Position numbers and translations under genes: made by a program. A stretch of DNA of 64,000 nt, from contig JAYQJB010000002.1 of NCBI GenBank assembly GCA_038141925.1, forward strand, positions 152,214 through 216,213, read 5' to 3'. Positions 9,296-58,569 of the stretch are shown piece after piece. This DNA comes from Gammaproteobacteria bacterium. Lineage in GTDB: Bacteria; Pseudomonadota; Gammaproteobacteria; Magnimaribacterales; AG-339-G14. Positions within the stretch are counted from its first letter, which is position 1. Each line of letters opens with the position of its first letter. A model generated the notes under the pieces. It had not been told where the DNA came from and made no database searches. It saw nothing but the letters and a program-made list of their open reading frames with translations.

Positions 9296-10053
9296 ATGAG
9301 TAAACATAAAGCTTTGGACATGTTCGGTAGGTCTGGAAATCCCACATTGAGTGATGCGACTTTTGCTGATTTTGAAAACGTAGATCAAAAAACCATGACT
9401 TTACAGGGAACTGTAAATAAAGTCGGAATTCTTTTAGCTCTTGTAGTGTTAAGTGCCGCCTACACCTGGAATGTTTATTTTGTAACTGGCAGTCCTGGAG
9501 CATTGATGCCAATTGGGCTTTTTGGTGGCATGATTTTTGCTCTTATTACCATCTTCAAAAAAAACTGGGCAATGTACACTGCGCCCATTTATGCCATATT
9601 GGAAGGACTCTTTTTAGGTGGAATTTCTGCCATTTTTGAAAGTCAGTATCCAGGAATTGTGATTCAAGCAACTGGATTAACTTTTGGAACTTTGGCTTCT
9701 TTATTAGTGCTTTATAAAACAGGAGTAATAAAACCTACTGAGAATTTCAGACTGATGGTGGTATCAGCCACTATGGGGATTGCTTGCTCTATGTGATTAG
9801 CTTCATTATGAGTATGTTTGGCACAGGTATCGGTTTCATTCATGACAATGGTATTTTTGGAATTGGCTTTAGCCTTTTTGTCGTGGGTATTGCGGCTTTG
9901 AATTTGGTTCTAGACTTTGACTTCATTGAAGAAGGATCTGAAAAAAATGCTCCAAAATATATGGAGTGGTTCGGCGCCTTTGCCTTAATGGTCACTTTGA
10001 TTTGGCTTTACTTGGAAATGCTTAGACTGCTTGCAAAACTCAGAAGCAGATAG
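9296..10053 (+). CDS. Bax inhibitor-1/YccA-like membrane protein (frameshift near 9785)
   Basis: SGNP, MTLQGTVNK, YAILEGLFLGGIS, then LVLDFDFIE..APKYMEW..TLIWLYLEMLRLL in the second ORF. Confidence 0.88.
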
Positions 10054-52970: not shown

Positions 52971-54090
52971 CGGAATCAATTACGCCAAGCAAAGTACCTA
53001 ATGAGAGCATGAAATTTTCGATACCTAATTCTATTTCTGTTGAGCGGACAGCTATCGATGGCTTCGAAGATTGCTTGAAATCACCTGCCTGAAAAGCCTC
53101 GATGACGCTGTTTGCTAAGCTATATCCATACGCGCGCGCTTTATCATGACTTGGTTTCGTGAGCATTTTTTCTAAAACAGGATCGTATATTGGATCGGTT
53201 GGCCCTGAAGTCATTAAGCCTCCTATGTTTCCTGTAAGCCATAAAGTGGTTCCGCCAAGTCCAGTTCTAATTAGCTGGTCGTCATAGTAAATACCCTCGC
53301 TTATGCCTCTTCTTAAGTAGCCTGCAACATCAGCAGTTAATTCTAGATTTTTATCCCATGTAAGTTCGACATGAATTCCAAAGTTAATTAGCGAGCCAAT
53401 AATTGAGCCATCAGGTCTATTAAACAAAATTGCTCTGATGTCATCGTCTATCACGATGGGCTTTCTTTTGTCTTTGATAGGCGTGAGAGGGTTAGTCGGA
53501 ATTAAAGCCAAGCTCATTTCTGCAGGCTCCAAGTTATCTATAGCTACTTTTAAGGAGCGTATGAAAGCTGTTTTGAGCTGCTCCATATAACCTTCATCAA
53601 CGCCGCTCTTTAAAAAGCCCGGGCCCCAAAGACCTTGGGTATCTGGGCCCTCATGATTATGAGTGGCATGCACCATGATGTAATCTAGCCCCCACTCTGT
53701 CGGAACATCCTCACGCACACTGAGTACAAATTTTCTCATTAGCCCTATAGTGTCAGCACTAATTATTCCTACCCGAGTCTGACCGTCATCGATCACAGCA
53801 GTTACCGCCATGAGGTCATCTTTAACTCCTTGCGCAGCTCGTTTATTTTGAAACCCTGCCATCCATACGGCATCAAATTTGTTGTTGCCATTCACATCAG
53901 TCCATCTATCAATATCCGAATCAAATTGAGCGTCGTTATTTATATCTTCCCATTCATCGATTAGCTCAGGAGTAATTGAAAGCTCAGCAAACCCAACTTT
54001 AAATTCGTTTGCATAAATTTGAGAAGCCAAAAAAATACTTAACATTATAAAAATGTATAGCTTGTATTTTGTAAAACTGTTTAATATCAA
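52957..54090 (-). CDS. Neutral/alkaline ceramidase-like protein, apparently C-terminally truncated
   Basis: VGFAELSITP, WMAGF, GVKDDL, HATHNHEGPDT.GLWG, NFGIHVE, TAD; ends where it meets the saccharopine dehydrogenase fragment. Confidence 0.7.
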   Translation of the reverse strand: MILNSFTKYKLYIFIMLSIFLASQIYANEFKVGFAELSITPELIDEWEDINNDAQFDSDIDRWTDVNGNNKFDAVWMAGFQNKRAAQGVKDDLMAVTAVIDDGQTRVGIISADTIGLMRKFVLSVREDVPTEWGLDYIMVHATHNHEGPDTQGLWGPGFLKSGVDEGYMEQLKTAFIRSLKVAIDNLEPAEMSLALIPTNPLTPIKDKRKPIVIDDDIRAILFNRPDGSIIGSLINFGIHVELTWDKNLELTADVAGYLRRGISEGIYYDDQLIRTGLGGTTLWLTGNIGGLMTSGPTDPIYDPVLEKMLTKPSHDKARAYGYSLANSVIEAFQAGDFKQSSKPSIAVRSTEIELGIENFMLSLGTLLGVIDSELVN

Positions 54091-54573
54091 AAATTACTTC
54101 TCTTCTTTTTTTGTTTAAAGAGTAAGGTTGTCACCATTAAAATTGAGATTATAAGCAAAGCAAATTTAATGAGAGTTAGAGATGCTTTTAATAATAAAAG
54201 AGTGTTGGTAATGAGCAAATTCAAAAGTACTACTTGATTTATACCTTCGGCGAGATCAACAAAAATTAAGATAAGAGGAATAAATATCAATTTCTTGTTG
54301 GAAGAGAGTCTGGATACTAAACCAACAAAAAAAAAGTCCATAGGCTAAAGGATAGATCACATCTAAAGTTAATGTAGCGATGGTGTGCATACGCAACATT
54401 TCAGCGCTCATGGAATTAATGATATTTGTAACTTCAAGCGGATAATAAAATGCATCCAAAAATTCAAAACCAAATTTTTTTGAAATAAATGGAAACAATG
54501 CCGTACAAATCAATGATATTGCGAAGAGCAAGGAAAGAAGTAAATTGGTTTTTAACTGATCCAAGATTTTCAT
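54087..54573 (-). CDS. Hypothetical membrane protein (frameshift near 54330)
   Basis: H...T.TLDVIYPLAYG then DLAE motif, typical of a 4-TM family. Confidence 0.65.
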
Positions 54574-54595
54574 AGAAAATTATTTAAACCTGCGC

Positions 54596-54624
54596 TCAAA
54601 TATATTCCGCCGTGACTGACTTGG
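54596..54624 (-). repeat. glmS 3'-end remnant (att-like copy D)
   Basis: Minus strand CC AAG TCA GTC ACG GCG GAA TA = K-S-V-T-A-E; 54596-54616 matches 55306-55326 at 17/21. Confidence 0.7.
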
Positions 54625-54644
54625 AAAAAACAGAAATGTGATTT

Positions 54645-54839
54645 TTATCCATAATTATCGGAGAAATATTTTTCTCTATCCTCTTTATTCATGCCAACTG
54701 TGTCATTCATAAAATTATTTCTGTCTTCTCTAGATTTAAAGACCCATATGCAAACCGTGTCCTGTGAATGATAGATTGCTTTTAGTTCATCATCTATTTC
54801 ACAGATTTCTTTTGGGATTTCTGTCTTAATACAAATCAA
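54645..54839 (-). CDS. 64-aa hypothetical protein (cassette gene)
   Basis: GAGGA RBS plus TTG start; CEIDDELKAIYHS..CIWVF..R.DRN.F. Confidence 0.65.
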   Translation of the reverse strand: MICIKTEIPKEICEIDDELKAIYHSQDTVCIWVFKSREDRNNFMNDTVGMNKEDREKYFSDNYG

Positions 54840-54848
54840 CGCTTCCTC

Positions 54849-54863
54849 TTACTCTACTGTAAC
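54849..54863 (-). repeat. glmS 3'-end remnant (att-like copy C)
   Basis: Minus strand GTT ACA GTA GAG TAA = V-T-V-E-stop in a 57-bp intergenic spacer. Confidence 0.7.
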
Positions 54864-54896
54864 GATTATAAAAATACTTGTGCTTATCTTTCATTG

Positions 54897-55283
54897 TTAT
54901 CCAAATAATGTGTGATGAAAAAATCTACCTGGCATCAAAGTAAATGCACCAGCAATTAAAAGTGCCCCAACATAGACACCAATCATCGAATACATATGTG
55001 CGAACTTATATCTTTCTATTCTTGTTGTTTTAAATTTCTTTATATTCCAAATTGAATAAATCAATGACCCAATAGTCCATGGTATTAAAAGATGAATTAA
55101 TGAATATTGACCGGGATTAATTGCTTGAATAAATATTGCTGTCAAAGAAACTATTATTAAAAAAGTTACCCAGATTCGTCCGAGTATTCTATGTTGCTTT
55201 GTGCCCTTTTTAGTTAGGAGGATGTAAAGACCAAGTGGTACTGCAAGTAATGCTAACGTTGCATGAGCATAAATTATTTGCAT
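54897..55283 (-). CDS. DUF2306 family membrane protein (cassette gene)
   Basis: H..LA..LG..KKGT..HRILGRIWV, S.IHLL, H...M...Y.GAL..AGAFTLMPGR. Confidence 0.85.
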   Translation of the reverse strand: MQIIYAHATLALLAVPLGLYILLTKKGTKQHRILGRIWVTFLIIVSLTAIFIQAINPGQYSLIHLLIPWTIGSLIYSIWNIKKFKTTRIERYKFAHMYSMIGVYVGALLIAGAFTLMPGRFFHHTLFG

Positions 55284-55311
55284 TTTTTATGTTGCAATTC
55301 TCTGTTCAAAC

Positions 55312-55353
55312 TTACTCCACCGTGACCGAGTTGAATTGTTTGTACTAGTTTTT
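55312..55353. repeat. att-like copy B: glmS 3'-end remnant plus left 26-bp inverted arm
   Basis: Minus strand TCG GTC ACG GTG GAG TAA = S-V-T-V-E-stop (55312-55329); arm 55328-55353 is the reverse complement of 56722-56747 at 23/26. Confidence 0.85.
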
Positions 55354-55357
55354 TTTC

Positions 55358-55747
55358 TTAGTCATCGTATTTTTTGTTTTGATGGGATTACACCTTCACC
55401 CCACCCCTTGGATCTTTAACATCATTTACATATCTTGGAATTAAATGAATATGAACATGCAATTGTCTGACCATCAATTGTCTGACCACTTACCGAACCA
55501 CAATTAACACCAATATTGTAACCCTGTGGTTTTTTAAATTTTTTATCCAAATAATCTTTTGTTTCAAATATCAATTCATTAAACCCTTTTAACTCCTCTT
55601 CAGTAGAGTCAAAATAACTTGAATAAACTCTTTTTGGAATTATTAATGAATGTCCCTCACTAACAGGGAAGTTATCTAAAATCACAAATCCAATAGAATT
55701 CTCAAAAAAGATGTTCTTGTCATCAAAAAAAAAGGACTTTCATTCAT
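55358..55747 (-). CDS. HIT family hydrolase (indels, 15-bp duplication)
   Basis: D.FPVSEGHSLIIPKR, GYNIGVN.G..SGQTI, HVHIHLIPRY..D..DPRGGV across frames. Confidence 0.85.
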
Positions 55748-56687
55748 TATACTTTTTTTTCTTCAAGTTTAGACCTGTGAATTTTTAAATATTTCTTCAT
55801 ACCTTCTGTGACTGAGATTTTAAATCTCCAGATAGACCGAGTTTTTTAAAATTCTCTTCATTTAAAGTATTGGAGACGATTATCTCTCCCGTATCTTGAA
55901 AAGAAATCAAATGTCTATGAAAAAGAGAATCGAAAAGAGGTGATAATAAAATTCCATTTTCTACATCCAATCTTTCCTCATCATTGGACTCAGACCAACT
56001 CACAATGTGTGATGAAATTAAAATGGATTTAATATTAATACCTGTTATCGGACATTTCCCTCCCCATTTTTCAATAATTTGTTGTCTGTAATATCCTTGA
56101 CCAACTCTAGAAGTAATAACCCTTTTCTTTGAGTTGTATTTGGTTTTTTATAATTTCTCTTTCTTTTATTTGAAACAACTCCTTGTTTTGAAATTTTAGA
56201 CCTAGTGGTCTTACCGATAGAAGAGGGAATTTTTTCCATAAATAGATGTCAATCAGATCTTCATTTTGAGTGTAATCATCATAATCAATATTTTGATAGA
56301 TCATGTGAACAGGTTTAGATGTTCCTTCCTCGTATGAATCATAGGTTAACCTTCCACAATATATAAAGGGTTGAGTAACATTTTTTATTCTTGGGAAAAT
56401 TCTTACAAAAAGATGTGGAATTAAATCACCGTTTACAATTTCCTGTATTTTTGGACTTTCTTGGGTTGTTTGAGAATCCCAATGAAAAAAATCACCTTCA
56501 AAAAAGTCATCAAAATGAAATCTTGTCTCTTTCCCCTTCTTTTCTAAATCAACAAAAAATAAAAAGAGTTAGAGTTTTTTAAATTATAAATTCCTTCCTA
56601 ACCAAAGAGATCTTTGGTTGGTCTAATAAGATTGATAAATCTTTTTTGAATATTTTCACCGACTGCTAATTTATTGTGAGGATCCAT
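55747..56687 (-). CDS. DUF3427-like N-terminal domain fused to an HNH endonuclease (several indels)
   Basis: LFFVDLEK..DDFF..FHWDSQ..HLFVR..TQPFIYCG then SRVGQGYYRQ..W.GKCPITG..LISSHIVSW..ERLDVENGILLSP.FD.LF..HLISF. Confidence 0.75.
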
Positions 56688-56721
56688 TATCTAAAAATTA
56701 CAAATTCGTTCATAATTTAAT

Positions 56722-56759
56722 AAAAACTAGTACATACAATACTACTCAACAGTAACAGA
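56722..56759. repeat. att-like copy A: right 26-bp inverted arm plus functional glmS end
   Basis: aaaaactagtacatacaatactactc (56722-56747) overlaps the glmS stop; minus strand TCT GTT ACT GTT GAG TAG. Confidence 0.85.
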
Positions 56760-58569
56760 CTTAGCTAAATTTCTTGGCTGATCGATGTCGGTTCCTCTAA
56801 GCAGGGCTACTTCGTAAGAAAGAATCTGTAGGGGTACGGTGTAAAGAATCGGCGTCAGTAAGAAATCGCATTCTGGCAGATTGATCAGATTTTTTGCTTT
56901 CAATTTCATATTGCCCGCAGCATTTCCAATGACAAACAATTTGCCCCCTCTTGCTTTTACTTCCTCTAAATTAGAAACCAATTTTTCTGCCAATTCATTT
57001 TCAGGCGCTAAGGCAATAACAGGCATATTCTTGTCAATTAAAGCAAGCGGTCCATGTTTGAGTTCTCCTGCAGGATAAGCTTCAGCATGAATATAAGAAA
57101 TTTCTTTGAGTTTTAGAGAGCCTTCTTTAGCTATTGGATAAAAAATTCCTCTTCCCAAAAATAAAGCGTTATCTTTTTTAGCTATTTCTTTAGCGATTTT
57201 TATAATCTTGGGTTTTAACTCCAATGTCTCAGTTATTTTCTCAGGCAAAGCTCGTAAAGCGCCAACAACTCTCCCCCTTAATCTTGGATTTAGGTTTCTT
57301 GCTTTTGCTAAAGACAAAGTAAGCAACATCAAGGCAGTTAATTGCGTCGTAAAAGCTTTGGTTGAGGCAACGCCTATTTCAGGTCCTGCATTTGTTAAAA
57401 GAACAAAATCAGATTCTCGGGCCAGCGAGCTTGTGGGCACGTTGCAAATGGTAAGCGAACCCAAATAGTTTCTTTCTTTGGCATATCTCAATGCGCCCAA
57501 AGTATCTGCAGTCTCTCCCGATTGTGAAATAGTCAATAACAAAGTATTTTTATCGACGTACGGATTTTTGTAGCGGTATTCGCTCGCATAATCTATTTGG
57601 GTTGGGAGATTTGCTATTGCTGAAAACCAATTTGCTGCCACTCTGCCAGCATGCAGACTTGTGCCTGCAGCAACGATTTGAATTCTTTCTACTTTTGAAA
57701 GTAACTCATTGGAACCTTCTCCAAAAATATTTTCGAGCACATCTTCGCCCCCAATCCTGCCGTCTAGAGTATTTAAAATTGCGGTTGGCTGCTCATAAAT
57801 TTCTTTTTCCATGAAATGGCGATACCCATTTTTGCCCATCGCCTCGCTTGGAGACATCGATAGTGGTAATTTTTCTAATGGCCCTTTTTTGGTTCTTGTC
57901 TAAAATCTTGTACTCTTTAGCAGATACCTCTGCGACGTCCCCATCTTCTAAGAAGACAAATTCATTGGTTAGATCAGCAAGCGCCAAAGGGTCGGATGCA
58001 GCAAACATGCCTGAATCAGATTGGCCCAAAAGAAGCGGCGATTTATTTCTCATGAGATAAAAATGCGATTCATTTTTTAAATCAATGGCAGCAACAGCGT
58101 AAGCGCCCTCAAGTTTTTCTTTCAACAAAGACATGGCTCCTAGCATCTCAATATCTTGGTTTAAGAAAAAATCCAGTTGATGCGCTATCAACTCTGAGTC
58201 GGTTTGGGAGTTAAATTGGTAACCTTTTTTAATGAGTTGTTCTTTCAAGGCAACATAATTTTCAATGATGCCGTTGTGCACGATAAACACCCTGTTATTA
58301 GAAACGTGTGGATGGGCGTTCTCTTCTGATGGCTTGCCGTGGGTAGCCCACCTTGTGTGAGCAATACCAATTTTGCCCTTGGGCTTTTCTTTAACCATTT
58401 TGGATTCAAGCTTTTTGACTTTGCCTAAAGATCTAAGGTGTGCAATATCGTCTATTTGATGCAAAGCCACTCCCGCAGAGTCGTAACCTCGATATTCCAT
58501 CTTGTACAAGCCCTGCACTAAGAGTTTGCCAACGCTTTTTTCAGTAGCTGCTGCAATTATTCCGCACAT
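56742..58569 (-). CDS. glmS: Glutamine--fructose-6-phosphate aminotransferase (frameshift near 57850)
   Basis: MCGI, EYRGYDSAG, HTRWATHG, HNGIIEN, SQSGETAD, VASTKAFT, ELKHGPLAL, DQPRNLAKSVTVE. Confidence 0.97.

Follow-up and report, generated by a model that had tools for sequence, protein, structure and literature searches.

The DNA described here is a stretch of 64,000 nucleotides, hereafter the window, from a Gammaproteobacteria bacterium of the order Magnimaribacterales (AG-339-G14; NCBI GenBank assembly GCA_038141925.1, contig JAYQJB010000002.1, positions 152,214 to 216,213 of the forward strand). The 3' end of its glmS gene holds a 1.41-kb cassette from which the dinucleotide GpC is almost absent. 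Relatives of this cassette that are free of GpC occur in other genomes and in metagenomes, among them an element of 14.6 kb with a single GpC. We consider it moderately probable that selection has purged such mobile elements of GpC, giving them self-immunity in a conflict over C5 modification of cytosine at GpC, and that the desert in the window is one of their cassettes.

A GpC desert in the source genome

Throughout, GC denotes the dinucleotide G then C, G+C denotes base composition, and expected counts are calculated from the base counts of the region itself. The desert, 55296-56763 (1,468 bp; 183 G and 255 C, 29.8% G+C), contains two GC, at 55459 and 56665, versus about 31.8 expected, an observed/expected ratio (O/E) of 0.06 (Poisson probability of two or fewer, about 8e-12). 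The O/E of the entire 64-kb window is 1.33. A preliminary description of the sequence had given the same two positions and an expectation of a few tens, and had stated that CG, GG and CC occur inside the desert; the recount agrees on all points, with 14 CG (O/E 0.44), 31 GG (1.36) and 65 CC (1.47).

None of the 16 dinucleotides has a longer gap in the window than the 1,206 bp without GC in the desert; the runner-up among GC gaps measures 229 bp, and the other dinucleotides reach 441 bp at most (CG). Genome-wide (1,225,982 bp in two contigs, about 34.6% G+C), the second-longest GC gap is 385 bp. All 1,468-bp segments of the genome were scanned, as the preliminary description had proposed; their median is 51-52 GC and their first percentile 25-26, and the only segments with 10 or fewer GC start at C2:207337-207659, which is the desert locus. 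The desert is therefore real and unique in its source genome. The region with the second-lowest GC O/E (0.34-0.47) lies outside the window at C2:702200-704000. This region (C2:702.2-704 kb) is a Ser-rich low-complexity repeat and was ruled out as a relative of the cassette.

The cassette in the glmS 3' end

The desert coincides with a cassette bounded by repeats of the glmS end, which is the newest in its array, as had been claimed: the desert spans 55295-56763 and the cassette 55330-56741, so the edges agree within 35 bp and 22 bp. The features of the locus are as follows.

55330-56741, minus strand: GpC-free cassette of 1,412-1,413 bp in the glmS 3' end, recognised by direct repeats of the glmS 3'-terminal 18-mer
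56742-58569, minus strand: glmS (glutamine-fructose-6-phosphate aminotransferase), the insertion target, recognised by its open reading frames (ORFs) and SIS domain
56742-56759, minus strand: functional glmS 3' end (last five codons plus stop), the proximal junction; pattern search, one mismatch
55312-55329, minus strand: displaced copy of the glmS 3' end, the distal junction; pattern search, no mismatches
56719-56747, no strand: inverted-repeat arm at the glmS-proximal cassette end, 29 nt, 86% complementary to 55328-55356
55328-55356, no strand: inverted-repeat arm at the distal cassette end; repeat search, pairs with 56719-56747
55747-56687, minus strand: gene A, a nuclease with DUF3427 and HNH_2 domains, about 315 codons, in several frames in this assembly; HNH_2 match and intact homologues
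55362-55747, minus strand: gene B, a HIT-family hydrolase whose start overlaps the gene A stop, frameshifted in this assembly; Pfam HIT PF01230

The order on the minus strand is glmS, gene A and gene B. The alignable glmS of relatives stops at 56742-56759, and 55311-55355 matches DNA directly downstream of glmS in several relatives. At the cassette junctions no tRNA, tmRNA or Rfam family was found; there is no transposase among the ORFs of 54000-58500, and the recombinase that moves the glmS cassettes was not identified in the window.

The piece of gene A at 55800-56147 matches HNH_2 (PF13391, E 4e-11) and the PADLOC HNH model PDLC04132 (6.9e-24), and PADLOC models of type II restriction enzymes match the same piece at 9.6e-15 and 5.6e-12. 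Intact homologues of gene A have 317-322 residues, with an N-terminal DUF3427 followed by HNH_2; DUF3427 (PF11907) was matched at 4.6e-16 in the protein of locus L137 (319 residues) and at 3.2e-15 in that of L141 (322 residues), both with HNH_2. Pfam gave no match to the window's own 153-residue fragment, because assembly frameshifts split the domain. Gene B matches PF01230 at E 7.7e-10, and its intact relatives do so at 8.7e-19. Its histidine triad (His-x-His-x-His-x-x) is intact and visible in the frame 55391-55489, and it is 55% identical to the intact 126-residue HIT of genome G024, a relative described below. The cassette consists of the nuclease and the HIT gene, with no accompanying methyltransferase.

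In some relatives the HNH and HIT domains are fused into proteins of 325-326 residues with an N-terminal helical domain (L022/L023 in G066 and G159; L025 and L026 in G048 and G014). These fusions argue that the two domains may act together. GC at the fusion loci of these four genomes is only partly depleted or normal.

Independent assemblies

Contigs of four sequencing runs from four studies were compared with the window over 55200-56900, and 20 rows from 10 studies contain part of the stretch. All four runs reproduce the cassette with few substitutions, and all four differ from the window at the same indel positions. Indel differences from the four assemblies number 19 within 1.7 kb, 12 of them with positions listed. 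The 13 bases at 55460 are absent in four of four runs, so that the GC at 55459 is gone, and position 56666 is T in three of four, so that the GC at 56665 is gone as well. The cassette thus has two GC in the window copy and 0-1 in the independent assemblies. It had been suggested that accurate reads might restore the GC sites. They were not restored, and of the two existing sites one was lost in all four runs and the other in three; 55459, taken earlier as a genuine duplication/frameshift site, is an assembly error.

With the 12 listed shared indels applied, gene A becomes a single open frame of 316 codons, and the frame of gene B is still broken after these 12 of the 19 differences have been applied. 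The cassette frameshifts are mostly assembly errors. Pseudogene decay was rejected as their cause, since the frameshifts fall on indels that the four other runs lack, and gene A is open once the listed ones are taken out. The glmS gene itself is read in two frames that meet near 57840 (57793-57857; tblastn with a relative's GlmS). Indel errors are frequent, which makes frameshift or pseudogene calls in this genome unreliable, and the 79% completeness estimated for it may be depressed by them.

One contig of run X13 joins 55329 to 56743 and omits exactly 1,413 bp, which is the empty site (single contig, depth 4). The depth of the cassette is far below that of its flanks; therefore only some strains carry the cassette.

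GC-free relatives

Since GCN are the alanine codons, genes free of GC encode proteins free of alanine. Within the order (G denotes its genomes, G000 being the source genome, f1-f3 its families, and L individual loci), a search with an intact HIT as query found this HIT type (E < 1e-25) in 13 of 266 genomes, and it adjoins or is fused to an HNH nuclease in all eight loci whose ORFs were examined. A GC-free cassette stands directly after the genome's own glmS in four genomes, the source included.

G000 (source), family f1: GC-free extent 1,206 bp
G024, family f1, another genus: GC-free extent 1,469 bp
G102, family f3: GC-free extent 1,426 bp; HIT protein 99% identical to that of G024
G223, family f2: GC-free extent about 1.1 kb with two internal GC

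The HIT (126-132 residues) and HNH (309 residues) genes of G024, G102 and G223 are intact and encode no alanine. G066 and G159 are partly depleted of GC, and the remaining genomes with this HIT are normal. The near-identity of the HIT proteins of G102 (L018) and G024 (L012/L019), genomes of different families whose glmS genes differ, may reflect either recent transfer or mis-binning.

Outside the order, the protein-database search returned 2,578 relatives at E <= 1e-10; alanine is absent from 18 of the 27 close relatives inspected. Among 80 loci in species genomes, six have a GC-free interval of 1,405 to at least 2,339 bp and 73 reach at most 349 bp; the records of the six are labelled SAR86, uncultured Alphaproteobacteria, Rickettsiales and SAR116. 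One alphaproteobacterial record (L053) has an intact, GC-free and alanine-free HIT and HNH cassette just after glmS, in a GC-free interval of 2,316 bp. In the window, G024, G102, G223 and L053 alike, glmS-end repeats stand at both cassette ends, and in the latter four the second copy marks the far end of the GC-free cassette. A metagenome contig of 46% G+C (L141) is GC-free for 3,139 bp directly after glmS, where it too has an intact, alanine-free HIT and HNH cassette; its flanks are at O/E 1.19. Other metagenome intervals reach 4,864 bp (L167) and at least 4,290 bp (L137). In the remaining one of the 80 species-genome loci, a contig of 50% G+C from a record labelled Rhodospirillaceae (L056, 3979-4463), the GC-free interval of 484 bp is the HIT gene alone (129 residues, no alanine), a sharply bounded single-gene island.

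Close homologues of the window cassette are GpC-free as well, a point that the preliminary description had left to be checked: DNA identity is 85% to L146 and 78-79% to L148, L137 and L139 (78.5% to L137), and all four are GC-free. Identity to L141 is about 72%, and GC-free relatives as a whole range over 58-87% and are frequently located at glmS. With GC-free relatives in many marine records, the proposed donor pool of GpC-free DNA is supported. Nineteen of 168 distinct HIT rows lie within GC-free intervals of at least 1 kb. Among the 113 HIT rows below 58% identity (L187 excluded), the longest GC-free interval is 345 bp and none is alanine-free; three phage contigs with HIT relatives at about 50% identity are normal in GC. 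A tree of 74 HIT rows has a clade of 42 (support 95/90) made up of 26 GC-free, 6 partial and 10 normal rows. The labels require at least 7-8 changes, a pattern consistent with an ancestor that was GC-free and with repeated relaxation, although the root is not established.

HIT rows have an HNH gene next to them in 26 of the 27 GC-free cases, 5 of the 6 partial ones and 15 of the 22 with normal GC (at or above 58% identity). The 309-residue HNH_4 protein has an AlphaFold model with pLDDT 84, and Foldseek against the PDB returned only a Cas9-type HNH domain (best E 6.9e-3). Scans of viral contigs gave no match for the HNH_4 protein, the DUF3427-HNH protein or the 692-residue fusion protein described in the next section.

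Alanine-free MORN-repeat proteins with lipoprotein-like N-termini, often in tandem, stand beside HIT-HNH in GC-free islands (L159 5598-7638; L137 1369-2661; L146 170-982; L165 2902-4529; L167 4157-4843). The GC-free island of L141 also contains, at 9589-9990, an ORF of Gly-Pro-rich tandem repeats (short G/P/Y/M units) with no alanine.

A 14.6-kb element with predicted GpC chemistry

The largest GC-free intervals are those of L159 (11,195 bp) and L161 (10,921 bp), where about 348 and 328 GC would be expected. The two loci overlap over 8,237 bp at 99.9% identity and thus form one element of 14,643 bp with one GC. Its ORFs of at least 100 codons contain no alanine except the recombinase, which has one. 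The genes encode a large serine recombinase, a Rep-like protein, three MORN-repeat proteins, HIT, HNH, and proteins of 249 and 692 residues.

The C-terminal half of the 692-residue protein matches PDB 8yf3 over its full length at 1.1e-66, the next match being at 1e-16. Both the SPPC motif and the Arg in place of the motif-X Asn are conserved. PDB 8yf3 is the structure of SpCmoX, a cytosine C5-carboxymethyltransferase from Synechococcus phage S-B43, which requires a GC motif according to nanopore motif analysis and oligonucleotide assays (PMC12783734). Identity to S-B43 CmoX is 38.5% (7e-75). The N-terminal PP-loop domain matches S-B43 CmoY, the 'putative asparagine synthase' adjoining CmoX, at 1e-18; CmoY ligates glycine onto the carboxymethyl group (PMC12783734). 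The 249-residue protein is 40% identical to S-B43 CmoA (2e-56), and its best solved relatives are CmoA/YecO. Judged by sequence similarity, the element encodes homologues of all three CmoA-CmoY-CmoX enzymes, with CmoY and CmoX fused, and its CmoX homologue, at 38.5% identity, may keep the GC specificity. Phage C5-methyltransferases and TET enzymes from viral metagenomes likewise act on GpC (Burke et al., PMC8256090). A GpC-specific modifier, one of the examples that had been suggested from the desert alone, thus gains support from these predicted enzymes.

The window cassette has none of the three Cmo genes, and the search of the source genome yielded no CmoX relative. Five genomes host the cassette or its HIT-HNH genes; neither a PF00145 C5-methyltransferase nor a CmoX relative was found in four of them (G000, 79% complete; G024, 93%; G102 and G066, about 80%; N4/N6 methyltransferases were not searched), and both were found in G223 only.

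The S-B43 locus (L213, 142595-155692) has 357 GC in 13.1 kb (O/E 0.71), and its three Cmo proteins contain 9, 15 and 21 Ala, versus none in the versions of the element. The phage's cmoA, cmoY and cmoX genes have 10, 18 and 23 GC observed and 26.5, 29 and 45 expected, a mild under-representation in a GC-modifying phage. Viral contigs with the closest CmoA proteins (L214-L216, 59-61% identity) have a GC O/E of 0.19-0.27 and 0-2.5% Ala, and share a core of resolvase, CmoA, ParB-like protein and a 662-residue CmoY-CmoX fusion. In 16 contigs with more distant CmoA proteins the O/E is 0.82-1.13. Type I restriction-like genes, identified as HsdM/S/R-like by sequence inspection only, are carried by the GC-depleted CmoA/CmoY-CmoX elements at 4714-9822 of L216 and 13180-13926 of L141, with 0.7-0.9% alanine, so depletion would extend to large multi-domain enzymes. 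PHROGs gave no match for 10 element proteins. For a 337-residue element protein the protein atlas provided a lead only, with ParB-HTH/MT-A70-like neighbours.

Selection at the DNA level

In the 18 ORFs of L159 and L161 (4,382 codons), the expected numbers of GC at codon positions 1-2, 2-3 and 3-1 are 164, 114 and 104, and the observed numbers are 1, 0 and 0. In the non-coding DNA of these loci, spacers between divergent genes included, 37 and 17.5 GC are expected and none is observed in either. The avoidance therefore covers all codon positions and intergenic DNA, as the preliminary description had read from the window, and its target is DNA (or possibly RNA) and not alanine as such.

The persistence of the avoidance was assessed by re-placing the substitutions between pairs of GC-free sequences at random sites of the same base, in 1000 simulations per pair.

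L146 to window: 176 substitutions; GC predicted 9.2, observed 2; 2 of 1000 simulations as low
L146 to L137: 216 substitutions; GC predicted 13.5, observed 0; 0 of 1000
G024 to L053: 363 substitutions; GC predicted 12.7, observed 0; 0 of 1000
L161 to L167: 442 substitutions; GC predicted 33.9, observed 0; 0 of 1000
L161 to G024: 542 substitutions; GC predicted 22.1, observed 0; 0 of 1000

Because the avoidance has been kept through hundreds of substitutions, in all codon phases and in non-coding DNA, it is ongoing and under selection at the DNA level. Columns of the HIT alignment that are Ala in 38-93% of normal homologues are Gly, Val or Ser in the GC-free HITs.

Proposed explanation and alternatives

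In the self-immunity account that we favour, the 1.41-kb cassette would have been acquired horizontally and integrated into the last codons of glmS, as a fragment or minimal form of an integrative element. Its source would be a marine pool of mobile elements, equipped with serine recombinases and a Rep-like gene, from whose DNA GpC has been removed and is kept out by selection on the DNA itself. CmoX-type carboxymethyltransferases, whether encoded by the element or by a phage, and phage GpC methyltransferases would find no site to mark in a GpC-free element, which would thus be safe from modification-dependent nucleases such as its own DUF3427-HNH enzyme. Modification, cleavage or both would make a GC site costly. 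The preliminary description had placed the origin of the cargo in a replicon under pressure against GpC, exerted for example by a methylase, a modifier or a short-site nuclease. Its DNA-level action, its donor pool and its GpC-specific modifier are all supported, and some enzyme activity would be what makes a GC site costly.

The HNH enzymes of both types may be modification-dependent, and the window's nuclease is best read as a putative enzyme of this kind instead of the R component of a restriction-modification pair, because of its DUF3427 domain and because four of the five hosts have no detected C5-methyltransferase or CmoX relative. Hosts without a detected modifier fit a nuclease that needs no cognate modifier. 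A more specific scheme is possible, at a fairly low probability: marine bacterioplankton would harbour a family of integrative elements with a natural proteome of 19 amino acids, among its members a recombinase, a C5-cytosine transferase, a Cx-SAM synthase, nucleases and a HIT enzyme; the elements' CmoA and CmoY-CmoX would mark all GpC of host and phage, the HNH nucleases would destroy or police marked DNA, the unmarkable element alone would be exempt, and the glmS cassettes would be portable fragments of the system. The HIT protein might then hydrolyse the adenylated intermediate of a CmoY-type ligation, which is a conjecture.

Several observations weigh against the self-immunity account. CmoA and CmoY-CmoX were seen together in one fully GC-free element only (L159/L161), and most GC-free loci are fragments of 2-5 kb in which the rest of the element is unseen. 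If the HNH nuclease cuts what the element's own CmoX produces, the presence of both in one element would kill the host unless they are regulated. No PDB structure, solved reader domains included, was matched by Foldseek to the N-terminal 190 residues of the HNH_4 protein. That the HNH gene forces GC-freeness is not supported, given the 15 normal-GC HIT rows that still have one adjacent; the purge thus appears to belong to the vehicle, not to the gene pair. Finally, the desert shows a relative enrichment of GT and AC (O/E 0.98 and 0.85 vs 0.72 and 0.64 window-wide).

This last observation is what mutational erosion would predict, in which cytosine at GpC, modified at C5 by the elements' own CmoX-type enzyme or attacked by a GpC-context deaminase, turns into a T-like base, so that GC decays to GT/AC while purifying selection keeps the proteins. 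CpG decays likewise in vertebrates. The partial depletion of L214-L216 is at a level typical of mutational decay, and the O/E of the S-B43 locus also suits such a process. We nevertheless judge erosion an unlikely main cause. The depletion is total in the 14.6-kb element and extends to sites at which 80-93% of normal homologues have Ala; besides Val, the replacements there comprise Gly and Ser, each of which takes transversions or two changes; and the genes are intact in G024, G102, G223, L053, L159 and others. Hosts in which no C5-methyltransferase was detected still hold a GC-free cassette, and the regain of GC in reverted lineages would be left unexplained. Erosion of modified cytosine may contribute and could explain L214-L216, but not the complete and compensated purge. 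Recent hypermutation by a GpC-context deaminase was rejected as the main cause, since intact relatives keep the state at 58-87% identity and Ala is replaced by Gly and Ser too.

Classical restriction-modification with a 2-bp site, in which the HNH enzyme would cut unmodified GpC, CmoA/CmoY-CmoX would protect the host and the element would be GC-free, draws on the co-occurrence of a GC-type modifier with HNH and HIT in L159/L161 and on the type II restriction enzyme models that match gene A. It appears improbable, and more so than erosion, because G024, G102 and G066 have intact HNH and HIT with no CmoX relative or PF00145 found, and a solitary nuclease that cuts every unmodified GC would be lethal. 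In addition, DUF3427 is known from modification-dependent enzymes (PMC6765204).

Action on RNA or on translation is very improbable. In this case transcripts would escape a GC-cutting ribonuclease, or proteins would be translated without tRNA-Ala or alanyl-tRNA synthetase. mRNAs without ACA or GCU escape the MazF and MqsR toxins; GC is self-reverse-complementary, so strand cannot separate RNA from DNA, and the element proteins are alanine-free. However, codon positions 2-3 and 3-1 are as free of GC as position 1-2, the same holds for the non-coding DNA with its divergent-gene spacers, and the desert edges are recombination junctions and not gene ends. Alanine is therefore not the primary target, and an RNA target is unlikely. 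A sequencing or assembly artefact is hardly conceivable: despite the many indel errors of the window assembly (12 listed and 7 further within 1.7 kb) and its frameshifted glmS, contigs of four runs from four studies show the cassette with equal or fewer GC, and GC-free relatives occur in many independent records.

Comparison with known systems

Phage, plasmid and bacterial genomes avoid restriction sites and palindromes, the target sequence being lost by selection. The GC-free elements are alike in that DNA escaping a sequence-specific DNA-targeting enzyme loses the target. They differ in that the target is a dinucleotide and not a 4-8-bp site, the avoidance is near-absolute over up to 14.6 kb, and one amino acid is lost. 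CpG depletion by methylation-driven deamination, which is about five-fold, also leaves the target dinucleotide of C5 modification under-represented, but GpC loss here is complete, is limited to mobile DNA and includes functionally conserved codons.

Tn7-type elements insert at attTn7 downstream of glmS, and here too foreign DNA gathers site-specifically beside glmS. In contrast to Tn7, the cassette junction lies inside the last 18 nt of glmS with the 18-mer duplicated, no Tns genes were seen in 54000-58500, and related GC-free elements encode serine recombinases. For a comparison with integron gene cassettes, the observations are that the bounding repeats are copies of the glmS 3' end and that the related elements encode serine and not tyrosine recombinases. 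Unlike classical type II restriction-modification, the cassette lacks a methyltransferase, and no C5-methyltransferase was found in the source genome.

The CmoA-CmoX-CmoY system of S-B43 is matched by L159/L161 in all three homologues and in gene neighbourhood. The phage decorates its own DNA (PMC12783734), whereas the element has a CmoY-CmoX fusion and alanine-free proteins; with no GC in the element to serve as substrate, the target of its enzyme must lie in other DNA. The window cassette is a relative of this vehicle carrying CmoA/CmoY-CmoX, and not a member of that system.

In SauUSI, and in enzymes that bind 5-methylcytosine (5mC) and 5-hydroxymethylcytosine (5hmC), specificity resides in the DUF3427 domain (PMC6765204). 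The nucleases described here resemble the DUF3427- or PUA-nuclease type IV enzymes, such as SauUSI and the McaZI group, in having an N-terminal DUF3427 and a C-terminal nuclease domain, with no cognate methyltransferase found in the host. The DUF3427 enzymes tested in PMC6765204 have a PD-(D/E)XK or PLD nuclease; here the domain is HNH_2, paired with HIT, and the gene is GC-free. GpC is a recurrent target of cytosine C5 modification in viral metagenomes, as shown by the phage systems of GpC C5-methyltransferase, TET and glycosyltransferase (PMC8256090) and by M.CviPI. By contrast, the GC-free loci showed neither a TET nor a glycosyltransferase, and the account of the phage systems in PMC8256090 does not report them as GpC-free.

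The literature search, with the supplementary contig lists of PMC12783734 and PMC8256090 outside its scope, found no report of GpC-free mobile elements or alanine-free proteomes. In the main text of PMC12783734 the terms 'avoid', 'underrepresent' and 'devoid' are absent, and the sole 'deplet' refers to depletion of S-adenosylmethionine (SAM). The principle of target-site avoidance is known. What appears to be new is how far it goes here, together with the loss of an amino acid and a modification system unable to act on its own carrier.

Significance

If confirmed, this would be the most extreme natural target-site avoidance known to us, with a two-base word gone from up to 14.6 kb and no alanine used. 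The serine recombinase, C5-cytosine transferase, HNH nucleases, HIT and CmoA proteins would be natural 19-amino-acid enzymes that apparently fold and work, and alanine-free proteins are of interest for protein evolution and reduced alphabets. Confirmation would also mean that mobile DNA in the most abundant marine lineages bears the imprint of GpC-directed cytosine hypermodification, which was described in phages only in 2021-2025. Because the integrative elements that carry the modifier are themselves exempt from modification, its role there would be something other than self-camouflage. Long GC-free stretches provide a simple computational signature for such elements, and the candidate nucleases, which may read carboxymethyl-type cytosine marks, could become tools.

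The cassette array after glmS

The 18-nt glmS end is found four times on the minus strand of the window, at 56742-59, 55312-29, 54849-66 and 54602-19, vs 0.56 matches expected. These copies indicate a cassette array after glmS, in which each insertion supplied a new gene end and displaced the old one outward. At least three cassettes follow glmS, each bounded by a copy of its last 18 nt. The two outer ones are older.

54867-55311, minus strand: older neighbouring cassette encoding a DUF2306 membrane protein (54897-55283; Pfam DUF2306), normal GC content
54620-54848, minus strand: oldest recognisable cassette, with a 64-residue ORF (54645-54839), ordinary GC content, recognised by degenerate glmS-end repeats

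The DUF2306 cassette is bounded by the repeats at 54849-54866 and 55312-55329. Its DNA is 94% identical to that of G018 and G031, which belong to another genus and another family; this match suggests recent exchange. The oldest cassette is bounded by the degenerate repeats at 54602-54619 and 54849-54866, and its DNA is 87-89% identical to that of three relatives.

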